A stretch of DNA of 29,281 nucleotides from Nanobdellati archaeon (GTDB lineage: Archaea; EX4484-52; GLR71): NCBI GenBank assembly GCA_019429125.1, contig JAHYJO010000016.1, positions 1 through 29,281 on the forward strand, written 5' to 3'. Shown piece after piece: positions 3,129 to 22,730 of this stretch. Both the position numbers and the translations under genes were made by a program. The notes beneath the pieces are model-generated. The model ran no database searches, was not told the DNA's origin, and saw only the letters and a list, made by a program, of their open reading frames with translations. The first letter of the stretch is position 1. Each line of letters starts with the position of its first letter.

Positions 3129-3208
3129 AATACAATCTTTAATGACAATGCTTAAATATTATTATGTATTGTATCTCTATCATTCTTCATCTTTAATCTT
3201 TAGCTTTT

Positions 3209-3310
3209 CATTATTTTTCATTATCTCTCATTATTTTTCATTATCTCTCATTATTTCTCATTCTCTCTCCATCTCATTCTCTCTCTCTCTCTTTATCTCT
3301 TTCTTTCTCT
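3209..3310 (+). repeat. Pyrimidine-rich low-complexity tract: about six 10-bp units (TTATYTYTCA) running into (CT)n
   Basis: ttatttttca/ttatctctca/ttatttttca/ttatctctca/ttatttctca/ttctctctcc at 3211-3270, then CT dinucleotides. Confidence 0.8.
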
Positions 3311-3374
3311 ATCGCATCCCCCCTTCCACATTAATTATCCCCTCATCCCTCCACACCCGAACACCCATTCACAC

Positions 3375-3437
3375 AAAGTCACCCACCAAGGTGTTAACGC
3401 ATCTATATGCCAGACATTCAGCCAATAAAGTATCAAC
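3375..3437 (+). repeat. 63-bp perfect direct repeat, copy 1 (copy 2 at 4556-4618)
   Basis: AAAGTCACCCACCAAGGTGTTAACGCATCTATATGCCAGACATTCAGCCAATAAAGTATCAAC occurs on both sides of the YhcG gene. Confidence 0.95.
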
Positions 3438-3525
3438 AGACAATCAAAATCCAACCAAACGCGCATACAACAACATATATCTACAACCTAAACCTTCAAA
3501 CAATTCAACAACGAGAGGCAATATT

Positions 3526-4506
3526 ATGAAATCTCATAAAGAAATACCCAAAAACAATAACAATTTAGACACAACAGATTACAATCAAATATTAACCGAT
3601 ATAAAATCCATACTTCAAAAAGGAATATCAAAGGTATACAAAGCCGTAGATAACCTTAGGGTGCAGACCTACTGGCAAATAGGCGAACGGATAGTCCGAG
3701 ATGAATTAGAACACAAAGAACGAGCGGATTATGGGCAAGGATTAATAAAAAAACTTGTTAGTGATATGGATATTTCAGAGAGAAATCTGCACAATTCTGT
3801 AAGAGTTTATAGAGTTTATCCAATTTTGCAGACAGTGTCTGCACAATTAAGTTGGTCACATCTTGTTGAGTTGATGTATATCGAAAACAATGACGAACGC
3901 AAATTTTATGAACAGCAGACAATTCAGAATACATGGAGTGTCCGTGTATTAAGAGAACAAATAAAAAATGATTTATACGGGTCTGCAAAAAAAGAAGGAA
4001 AATTAATTATTACTCAACCTCTACCAATAAAACAAATCACACCAGAAGACATCTTCAAAGACACCTACAACTTTGATTTCCTGAAATTAGACGAGAACCA
4101 CACCGAAACCGACCTGGAAACAGAACTGATGAAACACACAGAAAAACTATTACTTGAATTCGGCTCAGATTTCTCAATATCCGGCAGGCAGAAAAAGATA
4201 ATAATTGACGACCAGCTCCATAAAATAGACCTTGAATTTTATCACAGAGGACTTCCTTGTATCATTCTTGTAGACCTAAAAATCGGACGGTTCAAAAGCG
4301 AACACATAGGACAGATGAACAAATACCTAAATTGGTACAAAGAACACAAAAGATACCACTGGGAAAAAGACCCGATAGGTATCATCATCTGCAGATATAA
4401 AGGCATTGAAGAGATACATTATGCATTGGGTGGTATTAAAAACTCAATCTTTATCGCAGAATACAAGACAAGACTTCCAAAAGAGGACAAAATAAAGATA
4501 TTATAA
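3526..4506 (+). CDS. YhcG/DUF1016 family PD-(D/E)XK nuclease-domain protein
   Basis: YWQIGERIV, RADYG, LSWSHLVEL, ERKFYE, WSVRVL, KDTYNFDFL, IDLEFYHR, VDLKIG, GQMNKY and PIGIIIC. Start set at ATG 3526 after GAGG; the upstream ORF extension is low-complexity sequence. Confidence 0.92.
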   Translation: MKSHKEIPKNNNNLDTTDYNQILTDIKSILQKGISKVYKAVDNLRVQTYWQIGERIVRDELEHKERADYGQGLIKKLVSDMDISERNLHNSVRVYRVYPILQTVSAQLSWSHLVELMYIENNDERKFYEQQTIQNTWSVRVLREQIKNDLYGSAKKEGKLIITQPLPIKQITPEDIFKDTYNFDFLKLDENHTETDLETELMKHTEKLLLEFGSDFSISGRQKKIIIDDQLHKIDLEFYHRGLPCIILVDLKIGRFKSEHIGQMNKYLNWYKEHKRYHWEKDPIGIIICRYKGIEEIHYALGGIKNSIFIAEYKTRLPKEDKIKIL

Positions 4507-4555
4507 CTTCTGTAAATCTTGTTATTTGGAATTTCAAACGAATCAAAAACCCCCA

Positions 4556-4618
4556 AAAGTCACCCACCAAGGTGTTAACGCATCTATATGCCAGACATTC
4601 AGCCAATAAAGTATCAAC
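4556..4618 (+). repeat. 63-bp perfect direct repeat, copy 2
   Basis: Identical to 3375-3437. Confidence 0.95.
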
Positions 4619-5552
4619 CGACAGAAATTAAACCAATCTTTAATATGGCAGATGCAGTTGATAACATTGATACGCAAGACTTTTTATCCCTCATAAAAAC
4701 AGGCGAACACGAAACAATAGAGTTCAAAAAATCAACAGCGCAATTGGAAAAATCCCTAAGAACAATATGTGGTTTCCTAAACCACAAAGGTGGTATAGTT
4801 TACTTCGGCATCTCAGACAAAAATGAAATTGTAGGTCAAGAAGTATCAGATTCAACCTTAAAATCAATATCGCAGAAAATCAGGCAGAAGATAAAGCCTG
4901 AAATTCACCCAGAAATAAGAGTTATAGAGCTAGACAACAAAAAGATTATAGAAGTCAAGATAAAAGAAGGAACAAACAAACCTTATTATCTTGATTCAAT
5001 CGCATACAAACGAGTTGGTTCTGAAAGTCTATCAATACCTCCAGACGAACTGGAAATAATTATTCTTAAAAAGAATAGACGTCAGTGGGATTCTGAAGTC
5101 TGTGAAGATGCAACTTTAGAAGACATTGATGACAAAAAAGTAAAATGGTTCTTGAGAAAGGCTAAATATGAGCGTAAATTTGATGTTGATCTAGAAATAC
5201 TCATTAAAGAAGTTTTGATAAGATTGAAATTCCTGAAATATAATAAACTGACCAATTCAGCAGTTCTGCTCTTTGGAAAAAATCCGCAAAAGTTTGTTTT
5301 GCAATCCGTAATCAGATGTGCCCGATTTAAGGGGTTTACTCCAACAGACTTTATTGATCTGAAAATAATCGACGGGAATTTTTTTGATTTATTGAAAAAA
5401 ACTAAAGAATTTATTCTTTCACATATTAAAAAAGCTGCAAAAGTTGTAATGTTTAATCGTGAAGAGGTATGGGAGTATCCTCCAGATGCGATAAGAGAAG
5501 CAGTTGTAAATGCCATTGTCCATAGAGATTATTTAATTCAGGGCAATATTAG
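4588..5552 (+). pseudogene. AlbA_2 (Schlafen-like) domain plus RecG-C/HATPase_c_4-type protein, 3'-truncated by IS insertion
   Basis: GEHETIEFKKS, ICGFLNHKGGIVYFG, AVLLFGKNP and EYPPDAIREAVVNAIVHRDY. The reading frame runs into the IS TIR at 5553, so the C-terminal part is missing. The start may be ATG 4645. Confidence 0.85.
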
Positions 5553-5568
5553 GGCTGTGGGACAAAAT

Positions 5569-6840
5569 TCATTGTCCTATCCAGAATAGATTGTGCCATG
5601 CAATTATTACGAAATAAGATATATCTGACCGATTCGGTAATTTTTGAGGAATTCGCCAACCGAATCTTCGTTTATCTTCAGAAAAACCGCTCTCAGACTG
5701 ATTTCTCTTGAAATATTCACCTAAATAATTTTGTGTGTCATTAATAAACTGTTCCAACATTCGTTTCCAATCAAAATTTCCTTTAACGGTAACATTTTTT
5801 TTAGGTATTAAATAACATTTTATGTCTTCGAATTGTTCTGTAAAGAACTTTACTGTACTTTGTCTGCTGTAATATCTATCTAAACGAATAGAGTTTAAGT
5901 CAATATCCAAATGATTAAGCATTTCAATTGCTTGATTATATGCATCTTTTTCACTTTTGAAGCTGGTTCCGTATGCGATATATAATCTTTTTTCAACATC
6001 CATTAAAGCAAATGTAAAAAATACTTTTCGTTTTTTTGTAGTTTTTTTACCATCTTCTTTTAACTTTTGTGCCGATGAAGCATAATGTTCTTTAATTGTT
6101 AGAAGATACCCTGTCCCATCTCCGCATGTATCTGGTTTTTTGATATTTAAATCATTAAGTAATATTGAATGAAGATTGAATAAAACAAGTTTAACTTGTT
6201 CGTCATCATATATCCGTTCCACAGTTTTATAACTTATATCTACATCATTAAGACTTGAAAAAATAAGAAGCAATATAGACATTTCTCTATTGCTTTTTTG
6301 AATTAATTTTTGAATCAATAGTATTTAAACTTTTTGATTTAAATTAAGTTTAGGCGGTCTTCCTGCTGTTTTCTTGTCTGAAATATTTAATGGTTTTATT
6401 GCTTGTTTTATATATGATTGAAAAAAGGTTATTGCTTTTCTCAAACGTTGATTATATTGTTGTTCATAAGTCTTCCAATCTCTTTTTGTTTCAGGATTAT
6501 TTAGTTTATACAGGTCAATAAGTTGATCGTATTTGTTTAGCTAATTTTTGTCTTGCTTAATTTTGATTTTTTAAGAGATAACTACTATTTTTTGAAATAA
6601 TTATATTTATACTTTTTTAAGTTGGGTGCAAGCTATCGATTTTATAAGAATAAGATTAAATAATTTTTAAGATTTTTTAACAACACATTTTTAAGCGTTA
6701 GCTATTGATTTTGTAACAATTATAACTTATTGAGAATCACACCATAACGGCTGAAGCATATTGATTATTTTTTTGCTAAACAAGTACAGTTGATCTAATT
6801 CCTTGACTTTTTCTCGAACATCTTTCGTTTTTACTCGCAT
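5569..6840 (-). pseudogene. DDE transposase (ISNCY-like), disrupted by a MITE and a nonsense codon
   Basis: Starts MRVKTKDVREKVKELDQL at 6840. Removing the 259-bp MITE and one 8-bp TSD gives 1005 nt in frame (…RDWKTYE…GRPPKL…GDGTGY…RLDRYY…RNQSESGFS…), with one in-frame TAA at 6325-6327. Confidence 0.9.
6529..6787. mobile_element. Non-autonomous MITE with IS66-type ends
   Basis: Ends GTATTTGTTTAGCTAA…TTTGCTAAACAAGTAC match the IS66 element at 8156-9576. 8-bp TSD AGTTGATC at 6521-6528 and 6788-6795. No transposase inside. Confidence 0.93.
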
Positions 6841-7073: not shown

Positions 7074-7844
7074 GCCCTTGATGCAAGTTCTATTCCAAAA
7101 AGATATTGATTTGACCTTAAATTAAAACTCTCTTTAGAAGGTTTTGAACCGTACGAAAAAATCGTACAGTTGAAATTAATTGCAGAAGATGGGAAATTAA
7201 GATTAACTGATTGTGTAAATACAAAAAATGCATTTCGTATAATCCAATCTATTCCATCAAAAAAGGCAGAACCTTTCAAACTATGGCTGGCACAAGTAGG
7301 TTATGAACGAGTACAAGAGATTCAAGATCCGGAACTTGCTCAAAAACGGATGAAAGAATTATACATACAAAAAGGATATTCAAACGAATGGATTGAGAAA
7401 AGAGTCAGAGGTATTGCTATAAGGGATGAGTTGACAGGGGAATGGACTGATAGGGGTGTAAATACCAACAAAGAATTTTCAATTTTGACGGCAGAAATTA
7501 GTAAAGCTACATTTGATATGACACCTTCAGAATATAAACAACATAAAGGTTTGAAAAATGAGAATTTAAGAGACCATATGAATGATTTAGAACTTATATT
7601 CACCATGTTAGGAGAAGGAGCAACTACACACATAGCAAGAGCAACAGACGCACAGGGATTTAAGATCAACAAAATCGCCGCAAAAGAAGGTGGCACTGTT
7701 GCAGGAAATGCACGAAAAGAATTATAATTAAAATCAAACGAAAAAATAAGTACGTCTGATAATTATCTTGAAGTTCCTGAGAAAATAAAGAAATTGAAAA
7801 AATCAGAAAACACAAAAGATACAGTTGGGAAAAAGATTAGATAG
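7074..7844 (+). pseudogene. Bro-N domain protein, 5'-truncated by IS with two nonsense codons
   Basis: ALDASSIPKRY*FDLKLKL…EPYEKIVQLKL…FRIIQSIPSKKAEPFKLWLA…NLRDHM…NARKEL*LKSNEKISTSDNYL. Paralogous to 9998-10846. Stops at 7107-7109 and 7725-7727. Confidence 0.88.
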
Positions 7845-8004
7845 GTATCATCATCTGCAGATAAAAAGGCATTGAAGAGATACATTATGCATTGGGTGGT
7901 ATCACCAATTCAATCTTTATCGCCGAATACAAGACAAGACTTCCAAAAGAGGACAAAATAAAGATATTATAACGTCTGTAAATCTTGTTATTTAGAATTT
8001 CAAA
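7809..8004 (+). repeat. 196-bp near-identical duplicate of the YhcG 3' end and downstream sequence (4343-4538)
   Basis: Colinear high-identity match, including GATAGGTATCATCATCTGCAGATA…AAGATATTATAAC…GAATTTCAAA. This copy carries a TAT>TAA change. Confidence 0.92.
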
Positions 8005-8120: not shown

Positions 8121-8155
8121 ATATGCCAACTTTATGCCAATCAAATAAAATAATT

Positions 8156-9576
8156 GTACTTGTTTAGCTAATTCATCTAAATCTCTGTAAATTTATATAG
8201 TACATAACCGAAAAACAAAAATACTACTACTAATAATCATTATAATATATGGATCTAATATCAAATATAGATAATATGGAAAAAGAAGAATTGAAAACAA
8301 TTATCTTTAAGTTAATGAATGATATTGAACAATTAAAAAATGAGCTTGCAAAATACAAAAATCCAAACACCCCGCCTTCTGCAAACAAGCACCTTAAACC
8401 AAATACTCAGGGTCTTAAATCTGAAGATAAAAAACGTGGTGCCCCTAAAGGACATAAAGGCACCACAAGAATACAAATACCAATTAGAAAAGAAGTTATT
8501 AATTCTCATATTTGTCCAAACTGTAAAAGTTCGCATGTTGTCGATAAACAAATATTAAAACGAGTTGTTGAGGATGTTTCAGATGAAGTAAAACCCGAAA
8601 TTGTAGAATCCGAAATTCACAAAAAGGAATGCAAAAATTGCGGTCATGTGTTCATACCTGAACACAACACAACTCCTTTAATCGGTAAATTTGGTATAAA
8701 CATAATGGTTCTTGTTGTTTTTATAAAATTCATGTTGCGAGGTGTTTTAAGGAAATCTTCAACATTTTTTGATAAAAATTTTACACTAAAAATGACACCT
8801 GCAACAATCAATACGATAATAAAAAGAGTTGCAGATGCATCTGAAATTGAATATAATGCAATTAAATATAGAATAAAGATTGCAAAGATTGTTTATATTG
8901 ATGAAACGAGTTTTTCAGTTCTTGGAAAAAAATGGTGGGTCTGGGTTTTTAGGACAGAACATGACATTTTACTAGTAATTAGACCTAGCCGAGGCAATAA
9001 TGTGCTTGAAGAGATACTTGGAAAAGATTATACAGGGACAGTTATCTGTGACTGTTGGAGAGCATATAATTATCTATCAAATGCCCAGCTTCAGCGTTGC
9101 TGGGCACATTTGATTAGAAAATCTAAATTGCTAGAAACGATTGCAGGTAAAAATTTTCATAAAAAATTGAAACGATTGTTCAAAGAGATAAAACAATTCA
9201 ATTCATCAAAACATACTGAATTGGAAAGAACTGAAAAATATGAAATTATGACAAAGGAACTCAATAAACTGATAAAATATTATTCAAAATATGATGATTT
9301 GATGCCGGTTGTAAAATATATTAACTTCAATCTTGAAAATTGGTTTACTTGCATCAAAATTGAAGGTGTTGAACCCACAAATAATTTTGCAGAGCAAGCA
9401 ATAAGAGAAACGGTTGTGGTTCGAAAAATCATTGGTGCGTTCAGGTCAGAATCAGGAAAAGACAATTATGAAATCCTAGCATCATTGATGGCAACATGGC
9501 AATTGAAAGATGTAGATATAAAAGCAGAACTTAAGCAGATGCTGATAAAGAATTTATGTTTTTGCTAAACAAGTAC
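8156..9576 (+). mobile_element. IS66-family element, single-ORF (TnpC-only, ISBst12-like organisation)
   Basis: TIRs GTACTTGTTTAGC / GCTAAACAAGTAC. 8-bp TSD AAATAATT at 8148-8155 and 9577-9584. Confidence 0.95.
8249..9568 (+). CDS. IS66-family DDE transposase
   Basis: NPNTPPS, GAPKGHKG, CPNC…CKNC zinc ribbon, YIDETS, VICDCW, QRCWAHLIR and PTNNFAEQAIR. Stop lies inside the right TIR. Confidence 0.95.
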   Translation: MDLISNIDNMEKEELKTIIFKLMNDIEQLKNELAKYKNPNTPPSANKHLKPNTQGLKSEDKKRGAPKGHKGTTRIQIPIRKEVINSHICPNCKSSHVVDKQILKRVVEDVSDEVKPEIVESEIHKKECKNCGHVFIPEHNTTPLIGKFGINIMVLVVFIKFMLRGVLRKSSTFFDKNFTLKMTPATINTIIKRVADASEIEYNAIKYRIKIAKIVYIDETSFSVLGKKWWVWVFRTEHDILLVIRPSRGNNVLEEILGKDYTGTVICDCWRAYNYLSNAQLQRCWAHLIRKSKLLETIAGKNFHKKLKRLFKEIKQFNSSKHTELERTEKYEIMTKELNKLIKYYSKYDDLMPVVKYINFNLENWFTCIKIEGVEPTNNFAEQAIRETVVVRKIIGAFRSESGKDNYEILASLMATWQLKDVDIKAELKQMLIKNLCFC

Positions 9577-9681
9577 AAATAATTTAGTTTTTTTACAAAA
9601 ATATTATTTTAGTTATTGATAGGTTTAATACCTCTAGAGCTTTGCTCCGTGGGATAGTGGATTTTAGGCAATTCCTTAATA

Positions 9682-9849
9682 TTTTATAGAACCTATCCAA
9701 TAGTCCAAACACAGTCTGAACAATTAAGTTGGTCGCATCTTGTTGAGTTGATGTATATCGAAAACAATGATGAACGCAAGTTTTATGAACAACAATCAAT
9801 CCAAAATATGTTGAGTGTCAGGCAATTACAAAAACAGACATTACTCTAA
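9682..9849 (+). pseudogene. Fragment of a second YhcG/DUF1016 N-terminal domain
   Basis: FYRTYPIVQTQSEQLSWSHLVELMYIENNDERKFYEQQSIQNMLSVRQLQKQ, with high DNA similarity to about 3805-3960. Confidence 0.88.
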
Positions 9850-9997
9850 GCACAACATACAATTATCAAATTATAACAGATAACAAGCGCACCCTATACC
9901 TCCTCAAGCTCACACCGATTCTGCTGGCATACCGGCACATCACCTAAGACAGACATATAAACAAAAAAAGAAAAATCATCCTATCGGGATGATTAAC

Positions 9998-10846
9998 ATG
10001 GATAAAAATAATGCTTTAGTTTTGTTTGAAGACAAAGATATCAGAAGAGTGTGGTATAACAATCAATGGTATTTTTCAGTTATTGATATTATCGATGCAT
10101 TGACAGATAGTTCTATACCTAGGAGATACTGGTCTGATTTAAAAATAAAACTTGGTGAAGAAGGATTCCAGTTGTACGAAATTATCGTACAACTTAAACT
10201 ACAATCTGTTGACGGCAAATCATACAATACTGATTGTGCCAACACAAAGTCATTATTTAGGATAATTCAGTCAATACCATCTAAAAAGGCAGAACCATTC
10301 AAACTATGGCTCGCACAAGTAGGGTATGAAAGAGTTAAAGAGATTGAAAACCCCGAAATCGGACAAGACAGAATAAGGAATTATTATGAACTTAAAGGTT
10401 ATCCAAAAGACTGGATAGATAAAAGATTAAGAGGAATTGCAATACGTCAAGACCTAACATCAGAATGGAAAAATAGAGACATTGAAGAAGGAAAAGAATT
10501 TGCAATACTAACAAACGAAATTAGTACTGCAACTTTTGGAAAAACCATAAACGAATATAAACAATTCAAAAGTCTGCAAAAGCCAAATCAAAATTTAAGG
10601 GATCATATGAATGACTGGGAATTGATTCTAACTATGATAGGTGAAAAAGCAACAACTGACATAATAATATCAAAAGATTCAATAGGTCTTGAAAAATGTA
10701 AAGATTCTGCAAAAAAAGGTGGCACAATTGCAAAAAATACAAGGGTTGCATTAGAACAAGAAATAGGCAAATCATTGATATCTGATACAAATTATCTACA
10801 CTTGTCGGGAAAAAAGAAAAAATCGTTTATTGAAAATAAAAAATAA
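9998..10846 (+). CDS. Bro-N domain-containing protein (phage antirepressor-like)
   Basis: LFEDKDIRRVW, WYFSVIDII, PRRYWSDLK, LFRIIQSIPSKKAEPFKLWLA and NLRDHM. Alternative start at 9989. Confidence 0.9.
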   Translation: MDKNNALVLFEDKDIRRVWYNNQWYFSVIDIIDALTDSSIPRRYWSDLKIKLGEEGFQLYEIIVQLKLQSVDGKSYNTDCANTKSLFRIIQSIPSKKAEPFKLWLAQVGYERVKEIENPEIGQDRIRNYYELKGYPKDWIDKRLRGIAIRQDLTSEWKNRDIEEGKEFAILTNEISTATFGKTINEYKQFKSLQKPNQNLRDHMNDWELILTMIGEKATTDIIISKDSIGLEKCKDSAKKGGTIAKNTRVALEQEIGKSLISDTNYLHLSGKKKKSFIENKK

Positions 10847-10858
10847 AGATTTCAGAAT

Positions 10859-10954
10859 CATACAACAACAAATGTCTACAATATAAATCTTCAAACAATT
10901 CAATAACAAGAGGCAATATTATGACAGACCTGAAAAAAATACCCAAAATCAATA
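10859..10954 (+). repeat. Diverged 96-bp copy of the YhcG leader and first codons (3464-3559)
   Basis: CATACAACAAC…CTTCAAACAATTCAAYAACRAGAGGCAATATTATGA…AAATACCCAAAA is present at both loci. Confidence 0.85.
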
Positions 10955-12914: not shown

Positions 12915-15900
12915 ATGTCAGACTCAAAACCATTAAAAAACAAGCAAGTAACGACAGACTTTTTCATAACTGACGCCGACTACACAACATTTGAAGAAAA
13001 ACCAGCCATCCGCCTCTACGGAAGAACAAAAACAGGAAAGTCCGCAATAGTCTTGACCACCGATTTTGAACCTTATTTCTATATAATACCAAAAACAGAC
13101 CCAAAAGCCACCCAAAAAACAATAAAAGAACTCATTCTCAAAGACGACCAAGACAACACAATCATAATCAAGCGCACAGATATCCAACAAAAAACAGTTG
13201 ACGGCAAAGACATACAAGTTCTAAAGATAATAACTAACAATCCAAAAGACGTGCCCAAACTAAAAGATGCGCTAAAGCACATGAATTTTGTCAGTGACAA
13301 ACGCGAGTACGACATCCCATTCTCAAAAAGATACCTTTTTGACAAAGACATAAGACCTATGTCCTGGCTAAAAATCAAGGGCCAAGAAATAGCAAGCAAC
13401 TACAACTGCGACACCACAATCCTTGCAGAAACAATTGATAAAGACGAAAAAACCCAAGATTTTCCCAAACTAAACATATTAGCCTTTGACATAGAGACAA
13501 TACCCTTACCCAATAACAAACAACAAATAATAATGGCCTCTCTTGCCTCAAGTAGTGGTCTAAAAAAAGTAATCACCTACCAAAAAGCCACACAAAAAGA
13601 CACAATAATCAAAGCCTCGGAAAAGGAACTCATAGAAGAACTAATAGTGCAAATCCAAAAAGAAAAACCAGATTTCATAGTAACTTATAACGGTGACCAA
13701 TTTGATTTCACAGTCTTAAAAGATCGCGCAGACATAAACAAACTAACTCTCAACCTAGGTTTCAACACAAGACCTATGGAATTTTCAAGGCGTGGCATGA
13801 CAAGTGCGGCAATCATCAAGGGCTCTGCGCACATAGACCTCTACCAGTTCATATTCAAGGTCATGCGAACCACATTAAAATCCGAAACCTTAACCTTAGA
13901 CAATGTCGCAAATGAGCTAATCAACGAAAAAAAATTGGACATGGACTTTGAAGAGATGCAACGGATATGGAAAAACAAAGAAGACTTAAAAACAATAGCT
14001 GAATACAACCTTCACGACTCTATAATCACCTTAAAACTTGCCGAATACATCTTGCCTAACATATTTGCTATGTGCCACCTGACAAACCAGATTCCTTCTG
14101 ATGCTGGCAGATCAACTTACGGTCAACTCGTAGAATCATTTGCAATGAAAAATGCTACAAAACTTAACACTATAGTCCCGAACCGTCCATCAAGCGAAAC
14201 TGTATCTGACCGTAAACAGATAGCACCAATTGAGGGCGCATTCGTCGTAGAACCAACCCCAGGACTCTATAAAGACATTGCAGTATTTGATTTCAAATCC
14301 TTGTACCCGTCAATAATTGTATCTCATAACATATCTCCTGAGACTTTAAACTGTGCCTGCTGCAAACACTCAAATAAGAACAGAGTGCCGGGCTTCCCCT
14401 ATTACTTCTGCGAAAAAGAAAAGGGCTTTATCCCTGAAATTCTTGAAGAACTGCTCAAGGGAAGGGCAAAGGTCAAGGCAGAGATGAAAAAATATGACAG
14501 AAAAAGCCAGGAACACATACTTCTTGACAAGAAGCAGTATGCTTTCAAGACAGTGGCAAACGCATTCTATGGCTATCTCGGCTTTGCCGGATCCAGATGG
14601 TATAAGAGAGAGTGTGCAGAATCAGTCACAGCATTTGGAAGAAGCTACATCCACCACACAATAGACACTGCAAAGGATTTTGGATTAAAAACTATATATG
14701 GGGATAGCATCACTAAAAATCGTTTTGTGACTATTCTTGATAATGAAAGAAAATTACAGATAAAAAACATAGAAGACCTTTTTTACGAAAATTCCGACCA
14801 TATTTTTGAAAGAGATGATAAGGAAGTTGTTTTTCCAGTTAATCTGAAAGCTCTCAGCTTAGATACAAACACAGGAAAAGCGAAATTTAATAAGATCAAT
14901 GAAATTATAAGGCACAAATGCAGAAAAAATGTATTTAGAGTAAATCAAAAATTTGGAGAAACCTGTGTAACAGAAGATCATTCATTGATTGCAAAAGATA
15001 AAAACAATAATTTTTTGCCTGCAACAGTACATGAACTGAAAAATATGCAGATTGCAAAGATAATTGATATTCCCAAGTTAAAGCCGTTAACTAGAATAGA
15101 CCTCTATGATTATCTAAAATCTTACAAGATTCAATTAGATTATAAGAACCTAAAAAAGATAGCTCAGGTACATTATAACGATAATTTTGTCTGGTTTGGC
15201 TGGACAAGAAGAAAAGACAAGATACTTCTGAAACGTTTTATTGATGTCGGAACTGAAGAATTTGATGCATTATGTCGTATTTTTGGGATTTATATTGCAG
15301 AAGGATCCTCATCTACTCCAGAGACTACAAAAAGCTGTGCGGGTGCATCAATATATTTAGGTAATAAAGAGTATCTAGAAAAAGTAAAAGATGATTATGG
15401 TCTGCTTTTCTCTGGCGCAAAAGCATCAATAATAAGGTCTTGTTTGAAACCAAGAAAAATAAAGATTGCGTCAGGAGATTCATTTTATGAGGGTATAACT
15501 TACAAATTGCAGATGATGAATAATCTCTCTGCAGTATTCTTCAAATGTATGTGTGGTCAGAAAAGCAATGCTAAAAAACTGCCACAATTTATATATCATG
15601 TACCTATAAAATACAAAAAGATTCTTCTAGATGCTATGATTGACGGGGATGGTAGTCGTAATGTAAACAAAAAGTTAGGATACACAAAAGATTATATAAA
15701 AAATAATTTTAGATATAGTACAATTTCTCTTGAACTTATGTGTGGTTTATCCTTTTTGTTATCTCAGATGGAAATAAATTATTCTATGCGACATAGGCCA
15801 TCTAAAGATGAATATATTTTGCAGACATCCTCAAAACATAATTCTCGCATAATTACTAAAATAAAGCCTGTAATCTATGACAATTATGTATATGATTTAT

Positions 15901-16646
15901 CTGTTGAGGGAACAAACACTTTTGTAGATTCATGTGGTCAGATAGTATTGCATAATACAGATTCTCTCTTCCTTCTCCTTGACAGTAAAGAAGAAAAAAC
16001 AGCAAAATCATTCCTCACTCACATAAACAAAAACTTACCTGGTATGATGGAGCTTGAATTTGAAGACCTATTCAAAAGTGGCATCTTCGCAGCAAAAAAG
16101 TCAGGCACAGGTGGCGCAAAAAAGAGATATGCACTCATGAAAGAATCAGGAGAATTAAAAATACGCGGTTTTGAGCGAGTAAGACGCGACTGGTCAAGTC
16201 TTGCAAAAGATACCCAAGAAAAAGTGATGCGCCTCGTCTTAACAGGTAAAAAAGATGAAGCAACAGAATTAGTAAAAAAAGTAATCACAGATTTAAAATT
16301 AGGAAAGACAGATTTGGACATCTTAATCATTCATAACCAATTGACAATGCCAATCGCCAAATACGTGCAGATGGGACCGCACGTTGCAGCTGCAAAAAAA
16401 GCAGAAGCCAAAGGATTAAAGATAGAGCCTGGAACAGTCCTTAAATACATAATAACTAAAGGCACTGGTTCAATAAGTGACCGCGCATACCTATCTCAAT
16501 TTGCAAAAGATTATGACCCAGACTATTACATAAACCATCAAATACTTCCAGCTGCTTTGAGGATACTTTCAGCCGTCGGTGTCACAGAAGACCAGCTATT
16601 GAACAAAGGTACTCAGAAAGGATTATTTTCATTCTCTGGCAAATGA
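12915..16646 (+). CDS. polB: Family B DNA polymerase (PolB3-type) with one intein; about 826 aa after splicing
   Basis: Exo motifs FDIET, TYNGDQFD and YNLHDS; pol motifs DFKSLYPSII, KTVANAFYGY, YGD|TDS, KKRYA and GFERVRRDW. PIP-like QKGLFSF at the C-terminus. Confidence 0.97.
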   Translation: MSDSKPLKNKQVTTDFFITDADYTTFEEKPAIRLYGRTKTGKSAIVLTTDFEPYFYIIPKTDPKATQKTIKELILKDDQDNTIIIKRTDIQQKTVDGKDIQVLKIITNNPKDVPKLKDALKHMNFVSDKREYDIPFSKRYLFDKDIRPMSWLKIKGQEIASNYNCDTTILAETIDKDEKTQDFPKLNILAFDIETIPLPNNKQQIIMASLASSSGLKKVITYQKATQKDTIIKASEKELIEELIVQIQKEKPDFIVTYNGDQFDFTVLKDRADINKLTLNLGFNTRPMEFSRRGMTSAAIIKGSAHIDLYQFIFKVMRTTLKSETLTLDNVANELINEKKLDMDFEEMQRIWKNKEDLKTIAEYNLHDSIITLKLAEYILPNIFAMCHLTNQIPSDAGRSTYGQLVESFAMKNATKLNTIVPNRPSSETVSDRKQIAPIEGAFVVEPTPGLYKDIAVFDFKSLYPSIIVSHNISPETLNCACCKHSNKNRVPGFPYYFCEKEKGFIPEILEELLKGRAKVKAEMKKYDRKSQEHILLDKKQYAFKTVANAFYGYLGFAGSRWYKRECAESVTAFGRSYIHHTIDTAKDFGLKTIYGDSITKNRFVTILDNERKLQIKNIEDLFYENSDHIFERDDKEVVFPVNLKALSLDTNTGKAKFNKINEIIRHKCRKNVFRVNQKFGETCVTEDHSLIAKDKNNNFLPATVHELKNMQIAKIIDIPKLKPLTRIDLYDYLKSYKIQLDYKNLKKIAQVHYNDNFVWFGWTRRKDKILLKRFIDVGTEEFDALCRIFGIYIAEGSSSTPETTKSCAGASIYLGNKEYLEKVKDDYGLLFSGAKASIIRSCLKPRKIKIASGDSFYEGITYKLQMMNNLSAVFFKCMCGQKSNAKKLPQFIYHVPIKYKKILLDAMIDGDGSRNVNKKLGYTKDYIKNNFRYSTISLELMCGLSFLLSQMEINYSMRHRPSKDEYILQTSSKHNSRIITKIKPVIYDNYVYDLSVEGTNTFVDSCGQIVLHNTDSLFLLLDSKEEKTAKSFLTHINKNLPGMMELEFEDLFKSGIFAAKKSGTGGAKKRYALMKESGELKIRGFERVRRDWSSLAKDTQEKVMRLVLTGKKDEATELVKKVITDLKLGKTDLDILIIHNQLTMPIAKYVQMGPHVAAAKKAEAKGLKIEPGTVLKYIITKGTGSISDRAYLSQFAKDYDPDYYINHQILPAALRILSAVGVTEDQLLNKGTQKGLFSFSGK
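14706..15956 (+). mobile_element. Intein (417 aa) with LAGLIDADG homing endonuclease, inserted in the YGD/TDS catalytic motif
   Basis: Begins SITKNRFV, block B VTEDHSL, LAGLIDADG-like FGIYIAEGS and LDAMIDGDGS, ends VYDLSVEGTNTF…VLHN before Thr+1. Confidence 0.95.
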
Positions 16647-20996: not shown

Positions 20997-22006
20997 TTTT
21001 TAACCCATTTTAGCCGTCTTTTTAGTATATTTATTTGTAGTATTCTATTGTTTTTACCTACTATTTCTTATAATATTGATGAAATTTGTCTATTTAGGGT
21101 CCTACTGTTAGTTAAATTCCTTTATTTTATGTTTTTATTCAACAACATCTTTATTTCTGCCTGTTTTAACTCTCTCATTTTTGCCTGTTTTTTTGCTATT
21201 TTTGTGTATATTTACCTCTTTGTATTCAAAGTGGTGCTGTAAATGGTATGGTTTAATCTTGTGTGTATATTATAATTTTAGCTAGGTGTTTGGTGTAAGT
21301 ATTGGCATTGTGTGTGTATATCCTTGCGTGTCTGTATTTTTTTGATCTTATTATCGTTAGGCATCTCTAACTCTCTCATTTTTGCTCATTTTTTTGCAAT
21401 TCTTGTTATGTTTGTATTCTGGTCTTTGATTTTTCTGTAGTTTTTTGCTGATTTTTGCAAGCATTGTTCATGTGTAGCTACAACGATTATTGTATATTTT
21501 TATCGTTTTTATGGTGTCTTTTTTAGTTTATTGGGGTCTTAAGTCCTGTGTTCAGAAAATGTGTTCTGCGCGCATATATTGTATAATTAAATATTGCGTA
21601 CATAACTCTTGCGCTCTGTGCTATACTATCTTCTTGTCTGTCTGATTCTTTTTGTAATTTTGCGTAGTCTGATGCCGAACTATGTATATTTTGGATTTTT
21701 CATATCTCTCTCTCTCTCGCAGAAATATCATCTGATTACCCTCTCTTATTTGATCAATATATGTCATTTTCCTGTATTTTCATGCTGTTGAATCTGTTTT
21801 TGGTATATTTATGTATTTTTTGTCTCCAAATCTGCTATTTTTTTGTTTTTATTTTCTTTTTTGGGTCTGTGTTTGATGTGTCTATGCTCTTTTGATTTGT
21901 GTAAGTCCTTTTCAATATTTGGTTAGGTCATAGTATACTACTCTTTATAGTTTTCTCAATGTCTTTTTGGCTTGCTGTATGTGTCTAAATATTTTTATGC
22001 TATTTC

Positions 22007-22099
<93 letters not shown>

Positions 22100-22113
22100 T
22101 GTCTTATTTATGA

Positions 22114-22730
22114 TGCTATCGTTTTTATCTTGTTATATAATACTTACGTAAGTCATTTTTCTGATATGTGTTATAGTTTATGTGTGTGTTCTTGTCTGCC
22201 TTTTGTCTTTATATGTTTAGTCTATTGCTATCGTTTTTAGCAGACTTGTATGACTTATATAACTTGTATTGTTTGTATAGTCAGTTTTCTCATTGTCTCA
22301 TTATCTCGATGCTTAATATTTTGTATTTTTTGGCACATGCTATCGTTTTTAATATATCTTTTAGAACTTATATAAGTCATTTTTAGTCTTATGTTGCTCT
22401 AGTATGTGTTTTTTGTTAATCTGTCTAGTGCTTATATAACTCTTACATAACTTATATGATTGCTTACATAATTCTTATATAATACTTATATAACTTGTCT
22501 TAAAACTCCCTAAAACTGCCAAAATTAAGGACTATTTACTGTATTCTAGTTATATAACTCTTATGTAACTATTATATAAGTCTGGTTTACGCTTATATAA
22601 TCCTTATATCTAGCTTATATAACTCAAAAACCAAAGAATAAACATATCCGGTCTGCATATTTTTGTAATTTGTATCTAGACAAACCTTTAAAAGGTTAAT
22701 GATATAAATGCCAATGTTTAAATTATATAA
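22114..22730. repeat. Array of palindromic TTAYRTAA boxes plus three TGCTATCGTTTTTA motifs at 112-bp spacing
   Basis: Exact boxes start at 22133, 22144, 22255, 22368, 22432, 22443, 22464, 22475, 22486, 22550, 22561, 22572, 22593, 22615 and 22723. The 14-mer starts at 22114, 22226 and 22338. Confidence 0.85.

Follow-up and report, generated by a model that had tools for sequence, protein, structure and literature searches.

Why would a protein-coding gene carry, and keep, a palindrome within its reading frame? The question is raised by a contig of 29,281 nucleotides (nt) from a Nanobdellati archaeon (JAHYJO010000016.1, assembly GCA_019429125.1; "the window" hereafter designates this whole stretch). 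Its yhcG-like gene, a member of the DUF1016 family, contains at 3822–3848 the sequence AATTTTGCAGACAGTGTCTGCACAATT, a dyad of 27 nt in which 12 of 13 pairs are complementary around a single central G. An earlier note, made from the sequence of this contig, had described this dyad and viewed it as a variable cassette shared with an unrelated gene family, pointing to a diversification or autoregulation mechanism. We show here that such a palindrome occurs throughout the family of DUF1016_N genes and is maintained at the level of the nucleotides, and we then weigh what it may be for.

A palindrome within the coding sequence of a yhcG-like gene

The gene (3526–4506, + strand) encodes a protein of 326 amino acids (aa) with a DUF1016_N domain and a YhcG_C nuclease domain of the PD-(D/E)XK type, as identified with Pfam and PADLOC. 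The long open reading frame (ORF) that contains it, 3142–4506, matches PF17761 (DUF1016_N; E 4.2e-33, 114.8 bits for a curated cut-off of 32.8, ORF residues 153–279) and PF06250 (YhcG_C; E 2.1e-46, 158.1 bits for a cut-off of 32.5), and the protein matches PADLOC PDC-S02 (4.9e-97; YhcG / DUF1016, COG4804). The start is most probably at 3526 since a leader and a start codon that are also present in another cassette begin there. D235 and K252 are invariant in YhcG_C in an alignment of 30 sequences, and they probably form the catalytic motif of the nuclease domain.

The dyad lies about one third into the gene. It runs from the third base of the Pro99 codon to the second base of the Leu108 codon and, in agreement with the earlier note, encodes ILQTVSAQL, just 5′ of SWSH. 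Its core (3827–3843) is a perfect palindrome of the form 8+1+8, and is the part that covaries across the family (see below). As single-stranded DNA the dyad is predicted to fold on the + strand (−7.7 kcal/mol, z −4.3) and on the − strand (−8.3 kcal/mol, z −4.7), with a stem of 7 bp plus 4 bp and a 3-nt loop (DNA parameters). The layout is not that of an intrinsic terminator, i.e. AAGTTGGTCAC stands directly 3′ of the dyad and there is no T-run.

When the window was scanned with spacers of 0 to 5, this was the sole dyad with at least 12 of 13 pairs. Such an occurrence is not significant taken alone: a first-order Markov model of the window gives about 0.06 expected dyads at spacer 1, and such a dyad is present at spacer 1 in 6% of 400 Markov windows, and at some spacer from 0 to 5 in 25% of them. 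The genome (1.16 Mb, 34% G+C) contains 29 such dyads for about 12 expected. When the peptide encoded at the dyad is kept, however, only 1 of 20,000 synonymous recodings reaches 12/13. Single-window statistics alone are weak, and a chance origin is rejected solely by the comparative data, i.e. by the conservation of the axis in homologs.

The palindrome is conserved and covaries in the YhcG/DUF1016 family

Matches were found in 20 of the 61 related genomes that were searched. In 22 distinct homologous segments from relatives, the same 27 nt keep 9 to 12 of 13 pairs with arms that differ. To these we added 80 loci from one-genome-per-species contigs (Bacteroidota, Clostridia, Bacilli, Thermoleophilia, Acidobacteria, Cyanobacteria, Omnitrophota, Nitrospirae, a Gallionella, and metagenome-assembled genomes of Nanohaloarchaeota and Nanoarchaeota), retrieved with peptide patterns located near the N-terminus and in the nuclease domain, i.e. 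outside the dyad. The Trp codon of the [ST]W[ST]H motif served as anchor for all sequences; alignments without W at this place were skipped and not counted. The resulting set comprises 101 unique contexts, 70 distinct 27-mers and 59 distinct 17-nt cores.

The palindrome is present in all 70 distinct 27-mers. In 68 it stands at the anchor, where 5/8 core pairs or more are formed, and in the remaining two (L016 and L019) it is displaced by an insertion of 3–4 residues. In all members examined, the dyad stands 5 nt 5′ of the Trp codon of SWSH. Some genes carry more than one copy. L019 has two in-frame copies, 39 nt apart, and the yhcG gene of E. coli K-12 (NC_000913.3, 3367827–3368954; L203) has three in-frame palindromic cassettes, also 39 nt apart, with 8–9 of 9 pairs each (gene positions ~307–403; EIHQTMSGEL, GIPQTPSAEF and KIWQTLSAKS). 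A second in-frame cassette is also found in L041, L043 and L088, 30 nt upstream of the anchored dyad and with different outer arms.

The arms pair with each other within a molecule (6.98/8 on average) much better than with the arms of other genes (3.93/8). When the axis was moved from −45 to +45, offset 0 gave a mean of 6.98, with 78% of the sequences at 7/8 or more; the other offsets gave means of 0.9 to 3.5, and at most 2% of the sequences reached 7/8. The two shifted rows of the 70, poorly paired at the anchor, were dropped from the covariation, synonymous-resampling, innermost-pair and core-persistence tests. In the remaining 68-row alignment 85.5% of the cells are paired compared with 61.7% after shuffling (0 of 500 shuffles as high), double-change cells number 190 compared with 67.7 and the covariation score is 0.562 compared with 0.151, values to be read with the caution that these sequences share kinship and that the shuffle statistics overstate their independence. 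Controls slid along the same alignment gave 28–39% paired cells. Each of the core pairs 3 to 9 occurs as three or four Watson-Crick pair types. The covariation analysis that the earlier note had proposed for DUF1016_N genes is therefore positive, and dyad symmetry is present in the DUF1016 homologs rather than peculiar to this gene.

The earlier note had also proposed to scan the whole genome for such dyads, which should not be equally frequent in housekeeping genes if its reading is right. A scan for arms of 11 nt around a 1-nt centre with at least 10/11 pairs gave 19 dyads, 13 of them inside ORFs of at least 80 aa. Such dyads are thus rare in this genome, and the scan does not speak against the note. 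Three of the 13 are in YhcG or Bro-N genes (C32:3835, C32:10182 and C23:15378). Two others are in copies of one IS5-like transposase and one is in a DDE transposase (DUF772/DDE_Tnp_1); the remaining ones are in genes for a ParE toxin, a DUF234 ATPase, BaxI_1 and DUF5658 and in unassigned ORFs. The IS5-like copies (weak NCBIfam match; C12:892–914 and C31:2203–2225, loci L177 and L187) carry a palindrome with 11-bp arms encoding RTPTHCVG. It lies in the N-terminal region and was seen in near-identical copies only.

The AlbA_2/Schlafen gene beside yhcG served as a negative control. It contains a 9/10 dyad with a 3-nt centre (4766–4788), and its family is highly multi-copy in the relatives (up to 15 matches per genome). 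In 25 homologs the corresponding position has 2–7 of 10 pairs, without any peak at the axis. Thus not all dyads of the island are conserved.

Selection acts on the nucleotides

The symmetry could have been a by-product of a symmetric peptide. This was excluded on two grounds. When the peptides were kept and their codons resampled synonymously, pairing fell from the observed 7.2/8 to 3.3/8 (maximum of 200 runs, 3.6). In addition, the centre of the dyad is on codon position 1 in YhcG and on codon position 2 in the Bro-N genes described below. Codon choice follows the opposite arm: Ser106 is encoded by TCA where codon 102 is AAC, and by AGC where codon 102 is TAC. The changes in the YhcG arms are both compensatory and amino-acid-changing. 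In the structure model, which has a pLDDT (predicted local distance difference test) of 80.6, the stretch from helix 85–97 to helix 110–116, i.e. residues 98–109, is a loop that includes a one-turn helix. Taken together, these comparisons indicate that selection acts on the symmetry of the nucleotides and not on the peptide.

An analogous palindrome in the Bro-N genes of the island

The window contains a Bro-N gene at 9989–10846 (+ strand, 285 aa; Pfam PF02498, 8.8e-11, 42.7 bits for a curated cut-off of 25.6; PADLOC PDC-S13, 1.8e-113). Within it, at 10170–10194, lies the palindrome AGTTGTACGAAATTATCGTACAACT, which has 11/12 pairs and one central base, the second of codon 65, and encodes QLYEIIVQL. 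Its predicted fold is of −9.6 kcal/mol (z −6.0). A broken Bro-N paralog with two stop codons (7074–7793, + strand) retains the homologous palindrome (7147–7171, 9/10 pairs, 5-nt centre).

In 30 Bro-N homologs from the relatives the axis at codon 65 gives a mean of 8.1/10 pairs, compared with 1.5–4.3 at the other offsets, and the arms are very unlike one another. The MAFFT alignment has 87.2% of paired cells, compared with 58.5% after shuffling (0/500), and a covariation score of 0.715 compared with 0.207. Between paralog lineages, divergence is highest in the cassette (identity of 0.38 where flank identity is 0.6–0.7). The paralogs themselves are numerous, with 7–11 matches per ~1.5 Mb genome in G013, G014, G016 and other relatives, and they fall into discrete cassette types common to several genera.

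A shared ancestry of YhcG and Bro-N was considered and rejected: the two profiles are without similarity and hhalign gives a probability of 0.4%. The genes nevertheless occur together. They adjoin on several contigs of the relatives, and Bro-N-type palindromes are found within 1–1.6 kb of yhcG genes at three bacterial loci (L057, L081 and L107). The absence of similarity between the profiles and the different codon phase of the two centres thus uphold the claim of the earlier note that two unrelated, co-clustered families share an intragenic palindrome; in each it covaries at its own codon and is selected as nucleotides.

The cassettes are stable

The earlier note had gone further, and placed the YhcG palindrome in a variable segment for which it suggested a diversification mechanism. 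This part of it is not supported. The YhcG dyad segment lies within the most conserved motif of the domain, and the identity of the 19-nt core follows that of the flanks (0.97 for flanks at 0.9 or more, 0.80 at 0.7–0.8 and 0.51 at 0.5–0.6). The majority of the distinct YhcG cores (36/59) are imperfect, and the same 7/8 or 6/8 cores are common to genes with flanks only 64–68% identical. Likewise the Bro-N cassettes are identical in six of six pairs with flank identity of at least 0.8. The recombinase or reverse transcriptase that the note proposed to look for did not appear among the 21 ORFs of the window that were scanned, which include no reverse transcriptase, invertase or integrase but only transposases of the IS66 and IS630 types. 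The paralog fragments of the window are direct repeats and not inverted partial copies, as a shufflon would have. With Bro-N cassettes that are stable, imperfect YhcG cores that persist and a window devoid of reverse transcriptase and invertase, active diversification appears unlikely; the cassettes are old, type-specific and under purifying selection.

Two fragments of yhcG paralogs lie in the window. The first (9664–9837, + strand, residues 88–145) adjoins an IS66 element and contains a dyad at 9699–9725, encoding IVQTQSEQL, which has decayed to 9/13 pairs (core 5/8) and is not predicted to fold stably (−0.4 kcal/mol). As first reported, each of the four mismatches involves a third codon position in the left arm. 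The contrast between the two copies, near-identical after the palindrome and different within it, is also real: the gene and the fragment share 20/27 positions inside the dyad, compared with 62/65 over the 65 nt that follow and 23/30 over the 30 nt that precede. The nearest intact type has a core of 7/8, i.e. the fragment has lost two further pairs. The second fragment (7775–7969, + strand) corresponds to the C-terminal residues 262–326 and contains three stop codons. In the relatives, truncated or stop-bearing yhcG copies have mostly kept the palindrome, with 7–8 of 8 pairs. Since the fragment has decayed and most broken copies of the relatives have not, these remnants do not discriminate between the models discussed below.

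What may read the palindrome

The explanation that we favour, tentatively and with a probability of roughly 0.4, is that the palindrome is a putative self-site, i.e. a dyad-symmetric protein-binding site that acts as duplex DNA and is carried within the gene, probably for the product of that gene. The element consists of a central base flanked by arms of about 9 bp, to which an outer AATT is often added. A dimeric protein would bind it as double-stranded DNA, the likeliest binder being YhcG itself, and the peptide encoded at the site, a surface loop in the model, would take whatever residues the palindrome dictates. Such a site could function as an intragenic operator or as a loading site, and, since it lies within a mobile gene of defence islands, would follow that gene to whichever host or operon it enters; the unrelated Bro-N genes nearby have an analogous element. 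From the observations that follow we infer the duplex action, the reading by a protein and the identity of this protein with YhcG.

The types of pairs point to duplex DNA. The 544 core cells of the 68 YhcG rows comprise 490 Watson-Crick pairs, 25 A·C, 18 G·T and 11 others, without excess of wobble pairs on either strand; an RNA stem is disfavoured since G·U is not in excess on one strand. At the innermost pair, the third base of codon 103, which is four-fold degenerate, matches the second base of codon 104 by complementarity in 53 of 61 sequences, for a background use of A of 40%. No hairpin can form a pair that adjoins a lone central base. That this pair is kept favours a duplex dyad, or the copying of one arm onto the other, over a simple hairpin.

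YhcG is a plausible reader from its predicted structure. Residues 44–158 of the model align to the DNA-binding domains of ParB, Spo0J and KorB (6s6h_B, Z 7.4; 1vz0, Z 7.0; 8qa8, Z 6.7; 1r71, Z 6.5), over 89–102 residues. A regulator family, LmbU, gives a weak match at residues 75–157 (E 5e-4, far below the cut-off), and the family profile compared with the PDB sequences gave chance-level matches only. The model of the C-terminal domain matches NucS/EndoMS (Foldseek E 1.7e-5; 2vld, Z 11.4).

In two Lachnospiraceae genes (L087 and L083) an exact copy of 19–23 nt of the internal palindrome lies 347 nt upstream, in the order TATAAT box, copy, ribosome-binding site. The flanks of these copies are without homology and the layout is operator-like; in L087 the leader copy is followed by a T-run. 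These exact copies in the promoter leaders of two bacterial genes make autoregulation possible.

Several observations weigh against this self-site. Z scores below ~13 are common for helical domains, so that the alignments to ParB, Spo0J and KorB may reflect a common arrangement of helices. An extra near-identical copy within ~1.5 kb exists at only 2 of the 101 loci, L087 and L083, and the genome of the window has no second YhcG 17-mer within 2 substitutions and no second Bro-N 23-mer within 4. In Clostridia, six near-identical genes (L094, L098, L101, L102, L104 and L110) have leader palindromes that follow the −10 box and precede the ribosome-binding site, at ~320 nt from the internal dyad on its upstream side, but these differ from one another and from the internal palindrome that the six genes share. 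Cross-regulation by paralogs was considered for five Clostridia genomes and discarded: no paralog has an internal palindrome that matches the leader palindromes. Such differences fit recognition of shape, or turnover of the palindromes, better than one sequence-specific reader. A sequence-specific reader would moreover have to switch specificity with every arm change, and there are 59 distinct cores. To these points is added the kinship of the sequences mentioned above.

Two of the other explanations attribute the palindrome to DNA transactions and not to a reader. According to the one that we consider rather unlikely, it is a functionless quasipalindrome which perpetuates itself, template switching during replication copying arm onto arm wherever the protein tolerates the residues; passages of PMC8794818 and PMC8604942 describe how template switching creates and homogenises inverted repeats, coding DNA included. 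Such copying would account for a symmetry that extends right to the central base, for mismatch types that favour neither strand, for the in-frame tandem cassettes of L019, L041, L043, L088 and E. coli (three in the latter), and for the palindromes retained in most truncated or stop-bearing copies. But the persistence of the same 7/8 or 6/8 cores in genes with flanks at 64–68% identity, together with the 36 imperfect cores out of 59, shows that homogenisation is not fast, and the fragment of the window has lost pairs (5/8 compared with 7/8 in its nearest intact type). Nor would it predict one codon position fixed in all 70 distinct bacterial and archaeal sequences, or the presence of the feature in the unrelated Bro-N genes that share the island and not in AlbA_2, equally multi-copy. 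Unless selection is involved, it is difficult to see why the position would be fixed in these two functionally linked families and not in AlbA_2, and the exact copies of L087 and L083, located between the −10 box and the ribosome-binding site, also argue against mere copying. A site of recombination or cassette exchange, attC-like or shufflon-like, which would move or reshuffle segments of defence-island genes, appears to us the least probable of all. The surroundings are suggestive: two direct repeats of 68 nt, 99% identical, bracket the yhcG cassette (3375–3442, which duplicates the 5′ end of the AlbA_2 gene, and 4556–4623, which overlaps its start at 4588; both + strand), paralog fragments and insertion sequences lie around it, and the leader palindromes of Clostridia stand where a variable flank, on the upstream side, gives way to a conserved one downstream. 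A passage of PMC9881135 also reports DUF1016 and RhuM genes as enriched beside the targets of programmed inversion. However, the ends of the fragments (9664, 9837 and 7775) do not coincide with the dyad, no integrase or invertase is encoded in the window, the cassettes are stable within lineages, and the different arms of the paralogs leave no shared core for site-specific exchange.

The two others suppose that the arms fold. DNA extruded as a single-strand hairpin or a cruciform could be recognised by its shape, e.g. by the NucS-like nuclease domain or by a host repair enzyme. We hold this to be unlikely, although it accommodates well the arms that vary freely while they pair (59 distinct cores), the equal folding of both strands, and the leader palindromes of Clostridia, which differ in their arms but have the same format, i.e. 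an outer AATT on each side of complementary arms. The resemblance of the C-terminal domain to NucS/EndoMS, an enzyme of non-standard DNA, is in line with it, and the AT-rich outer AATT could ease extrusion. The innermost pair, which cannot form in the loop of a hairpin or cruciform, is nevertheless kept at a synonymous site (53/61), and imperfect cores are conserved as specific sequences. Arms of 8–9 bp are also short for the extrusion of a cruciform. If folding took place in the mRNA, the hairpin might control the stability, translation or processing of the transcript. The stable stem predicted above (with DNA parameters) and the location of some bacterial free copies in the 5′ leader, after the −10 box and before the ribosome-binding site, with a T-run after that of L087, are compatible with this idea, which we regard as improbable on account of the same innermost pair and of the mismatches. 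G·U pairs are not above A·C pairs in the YhcG core (18 compared with 25) or in Bro-N (6 G·T compared with 10 A·C), and wobble pairs are characteristic of neither strand: pair 3 has 11 A·C and pair 9 has 15 U·G. The element is also kept in bacteria and archaea despite their different RNA machineries. A scan of 3400–4600 with Rfam 15 at E values up to 10 gave no match over the dyad, and three chance-level matches elsewhere.

Coming back to the self-site, a bolder version of it can be formulated, which we find doubtful. Each YhcG and, independently, each Bro-N would bind as a dimer the very palindrome that encodes the loop of its own DNA-binding domain, and the palindrome would be a portable private address. 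If this were true, site and protein would be contained in the same 27 bases, and paired mutations of one short stretch would yield new specificities. Different arms would then insulate the paralogs of one genome from one another.

Surroundings of the gene in the window

The IS66-family insertion sequence (8131–9601, + strand; transposase 8249–9568, PF03050 2e-32; terminal inverted repeats of 46 nt) lies between the two yhcG paralog fragments. The leader and first codons of yhcG (3464–3559) are 84% identical to those at 10859–10954, in front of a helix-turn-helix nucleotidyltransferase gene. From its sequence the island looks assembled from cassettes with shared leaders. Inverted repeats of 149 nt, 89% complementary (1–149 and 5530–5678), enclose glycosyltransferase, epimerase, yhcG and AlbA_2 genes. 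Further along the window, a family B DNA polymerase gene (12915–16646) is interrupted by an intein (Intein_splicing, residues 610–1014). A long (CTAT)n microsatellite (21984–22127) is followed by a cluster of direct and inverted CTTATATAAC-like motifs (22421–22631), both upstream of an operon encoding a type IV pilus/archaellum-like ATPase.

Significance and comparison with known systems

Among the uncharacterised genes found in defence islands, restriction-modification operons, phages and giant viruses, those of the YhcG/DUF1016 and Bro-N families rank with the most frequent. The compensating DNA element within their coding sequence hints at a concrete molecular partner for these two families of unknown function. 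Residues which look variable in alignments of the two families are dictated by DNA pairing and not by the function of the protein alone and, more generally, a protein sequence can be subordinate to DNA symmetry over very long evolutionary times. The three cassettes of E. coli K-12 yhcG make the question directly testable. Our searches of the literature on DUF1016, YhcG, Bro-N, RhuM, coding palindromes and template switching gave no description of the element; the pertinent passages of PMC5941160 cover non-coding repeats only.

By the alignment of the N-terminal domain of its model to ParB, Spo0J and KorB (Z 6.5–7.4, middling values), YhcG may recall the ParB/Spo0J-parS and KorB-OB systems, in which dimeric helix-turn-helix proteins bind short palindromes; the titles of the matched PDB entries mention complexes with parS or operator DNA. 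One B. subtilis parS reportedly lies within the spo0J gene itself, as Lin and Grossman are said to have described in 1998. But parS hardly varies in sequence and exists in several copies close to the replication origin, whereas the YhcG site has lineage-specific arms, is usually in single copy and does not change its codon position, in a gene whose product has a nuclease domain.

Auxiliary operators within coding sequences are exemplified by lacO2 in lacZ and galOI in galE. There too, a dyad site inside an ORF is paired with a promoter-proximal copy, the layout seen in L087 and L083. These operators are nevertheless in a downstream structural gene and not in the DNA-binding domain of the regulator itself, they are not known to show family-wide compensatory conservation, and the second nearby copy is missing in 99 of the 101 YhcG loci and in the genome of the window.

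Two families of mobile or repeated palindromes also come to mind. Integron attC sites resemble the YhcG element in that structure is conserved while sequence varies, and in their tie to mobile gene cassettes. They are located at cassette ends, are imperfect with extrahelical bases and require the IntI integrase; the YhcG site is internal to the gene and symmetric to the centre, and none of the 21 ORFs scanned in the window encodes an integrase. REP/REPIN sequences, which are associated with RAYT transposases, are likewise short palindromes able to form hairpins. REPs are extragenic and exist in tens to hundreds of copies, whereas the YhcG palindrome is intragenic and occurs once in the 1.16 Mb genome when up to 2 substitutions are allowed.

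The nearest published analogue that we found is that of the hairworm mitochondrial repeats, for which passages of PMC6649704 describe perfect inverted repeats inside coding genes, both arms encoding functional protein, with sequence and structure preserved together. According to the same passages, these repeats reach 284 bp, are numerous in each genome and belong to the mitochondria of one animal phylum (PMC6649704). The YhcG element is, in contrast, one short dyad with type-specific arms, held at one homologous codon throughout a prokaryotic protein family.

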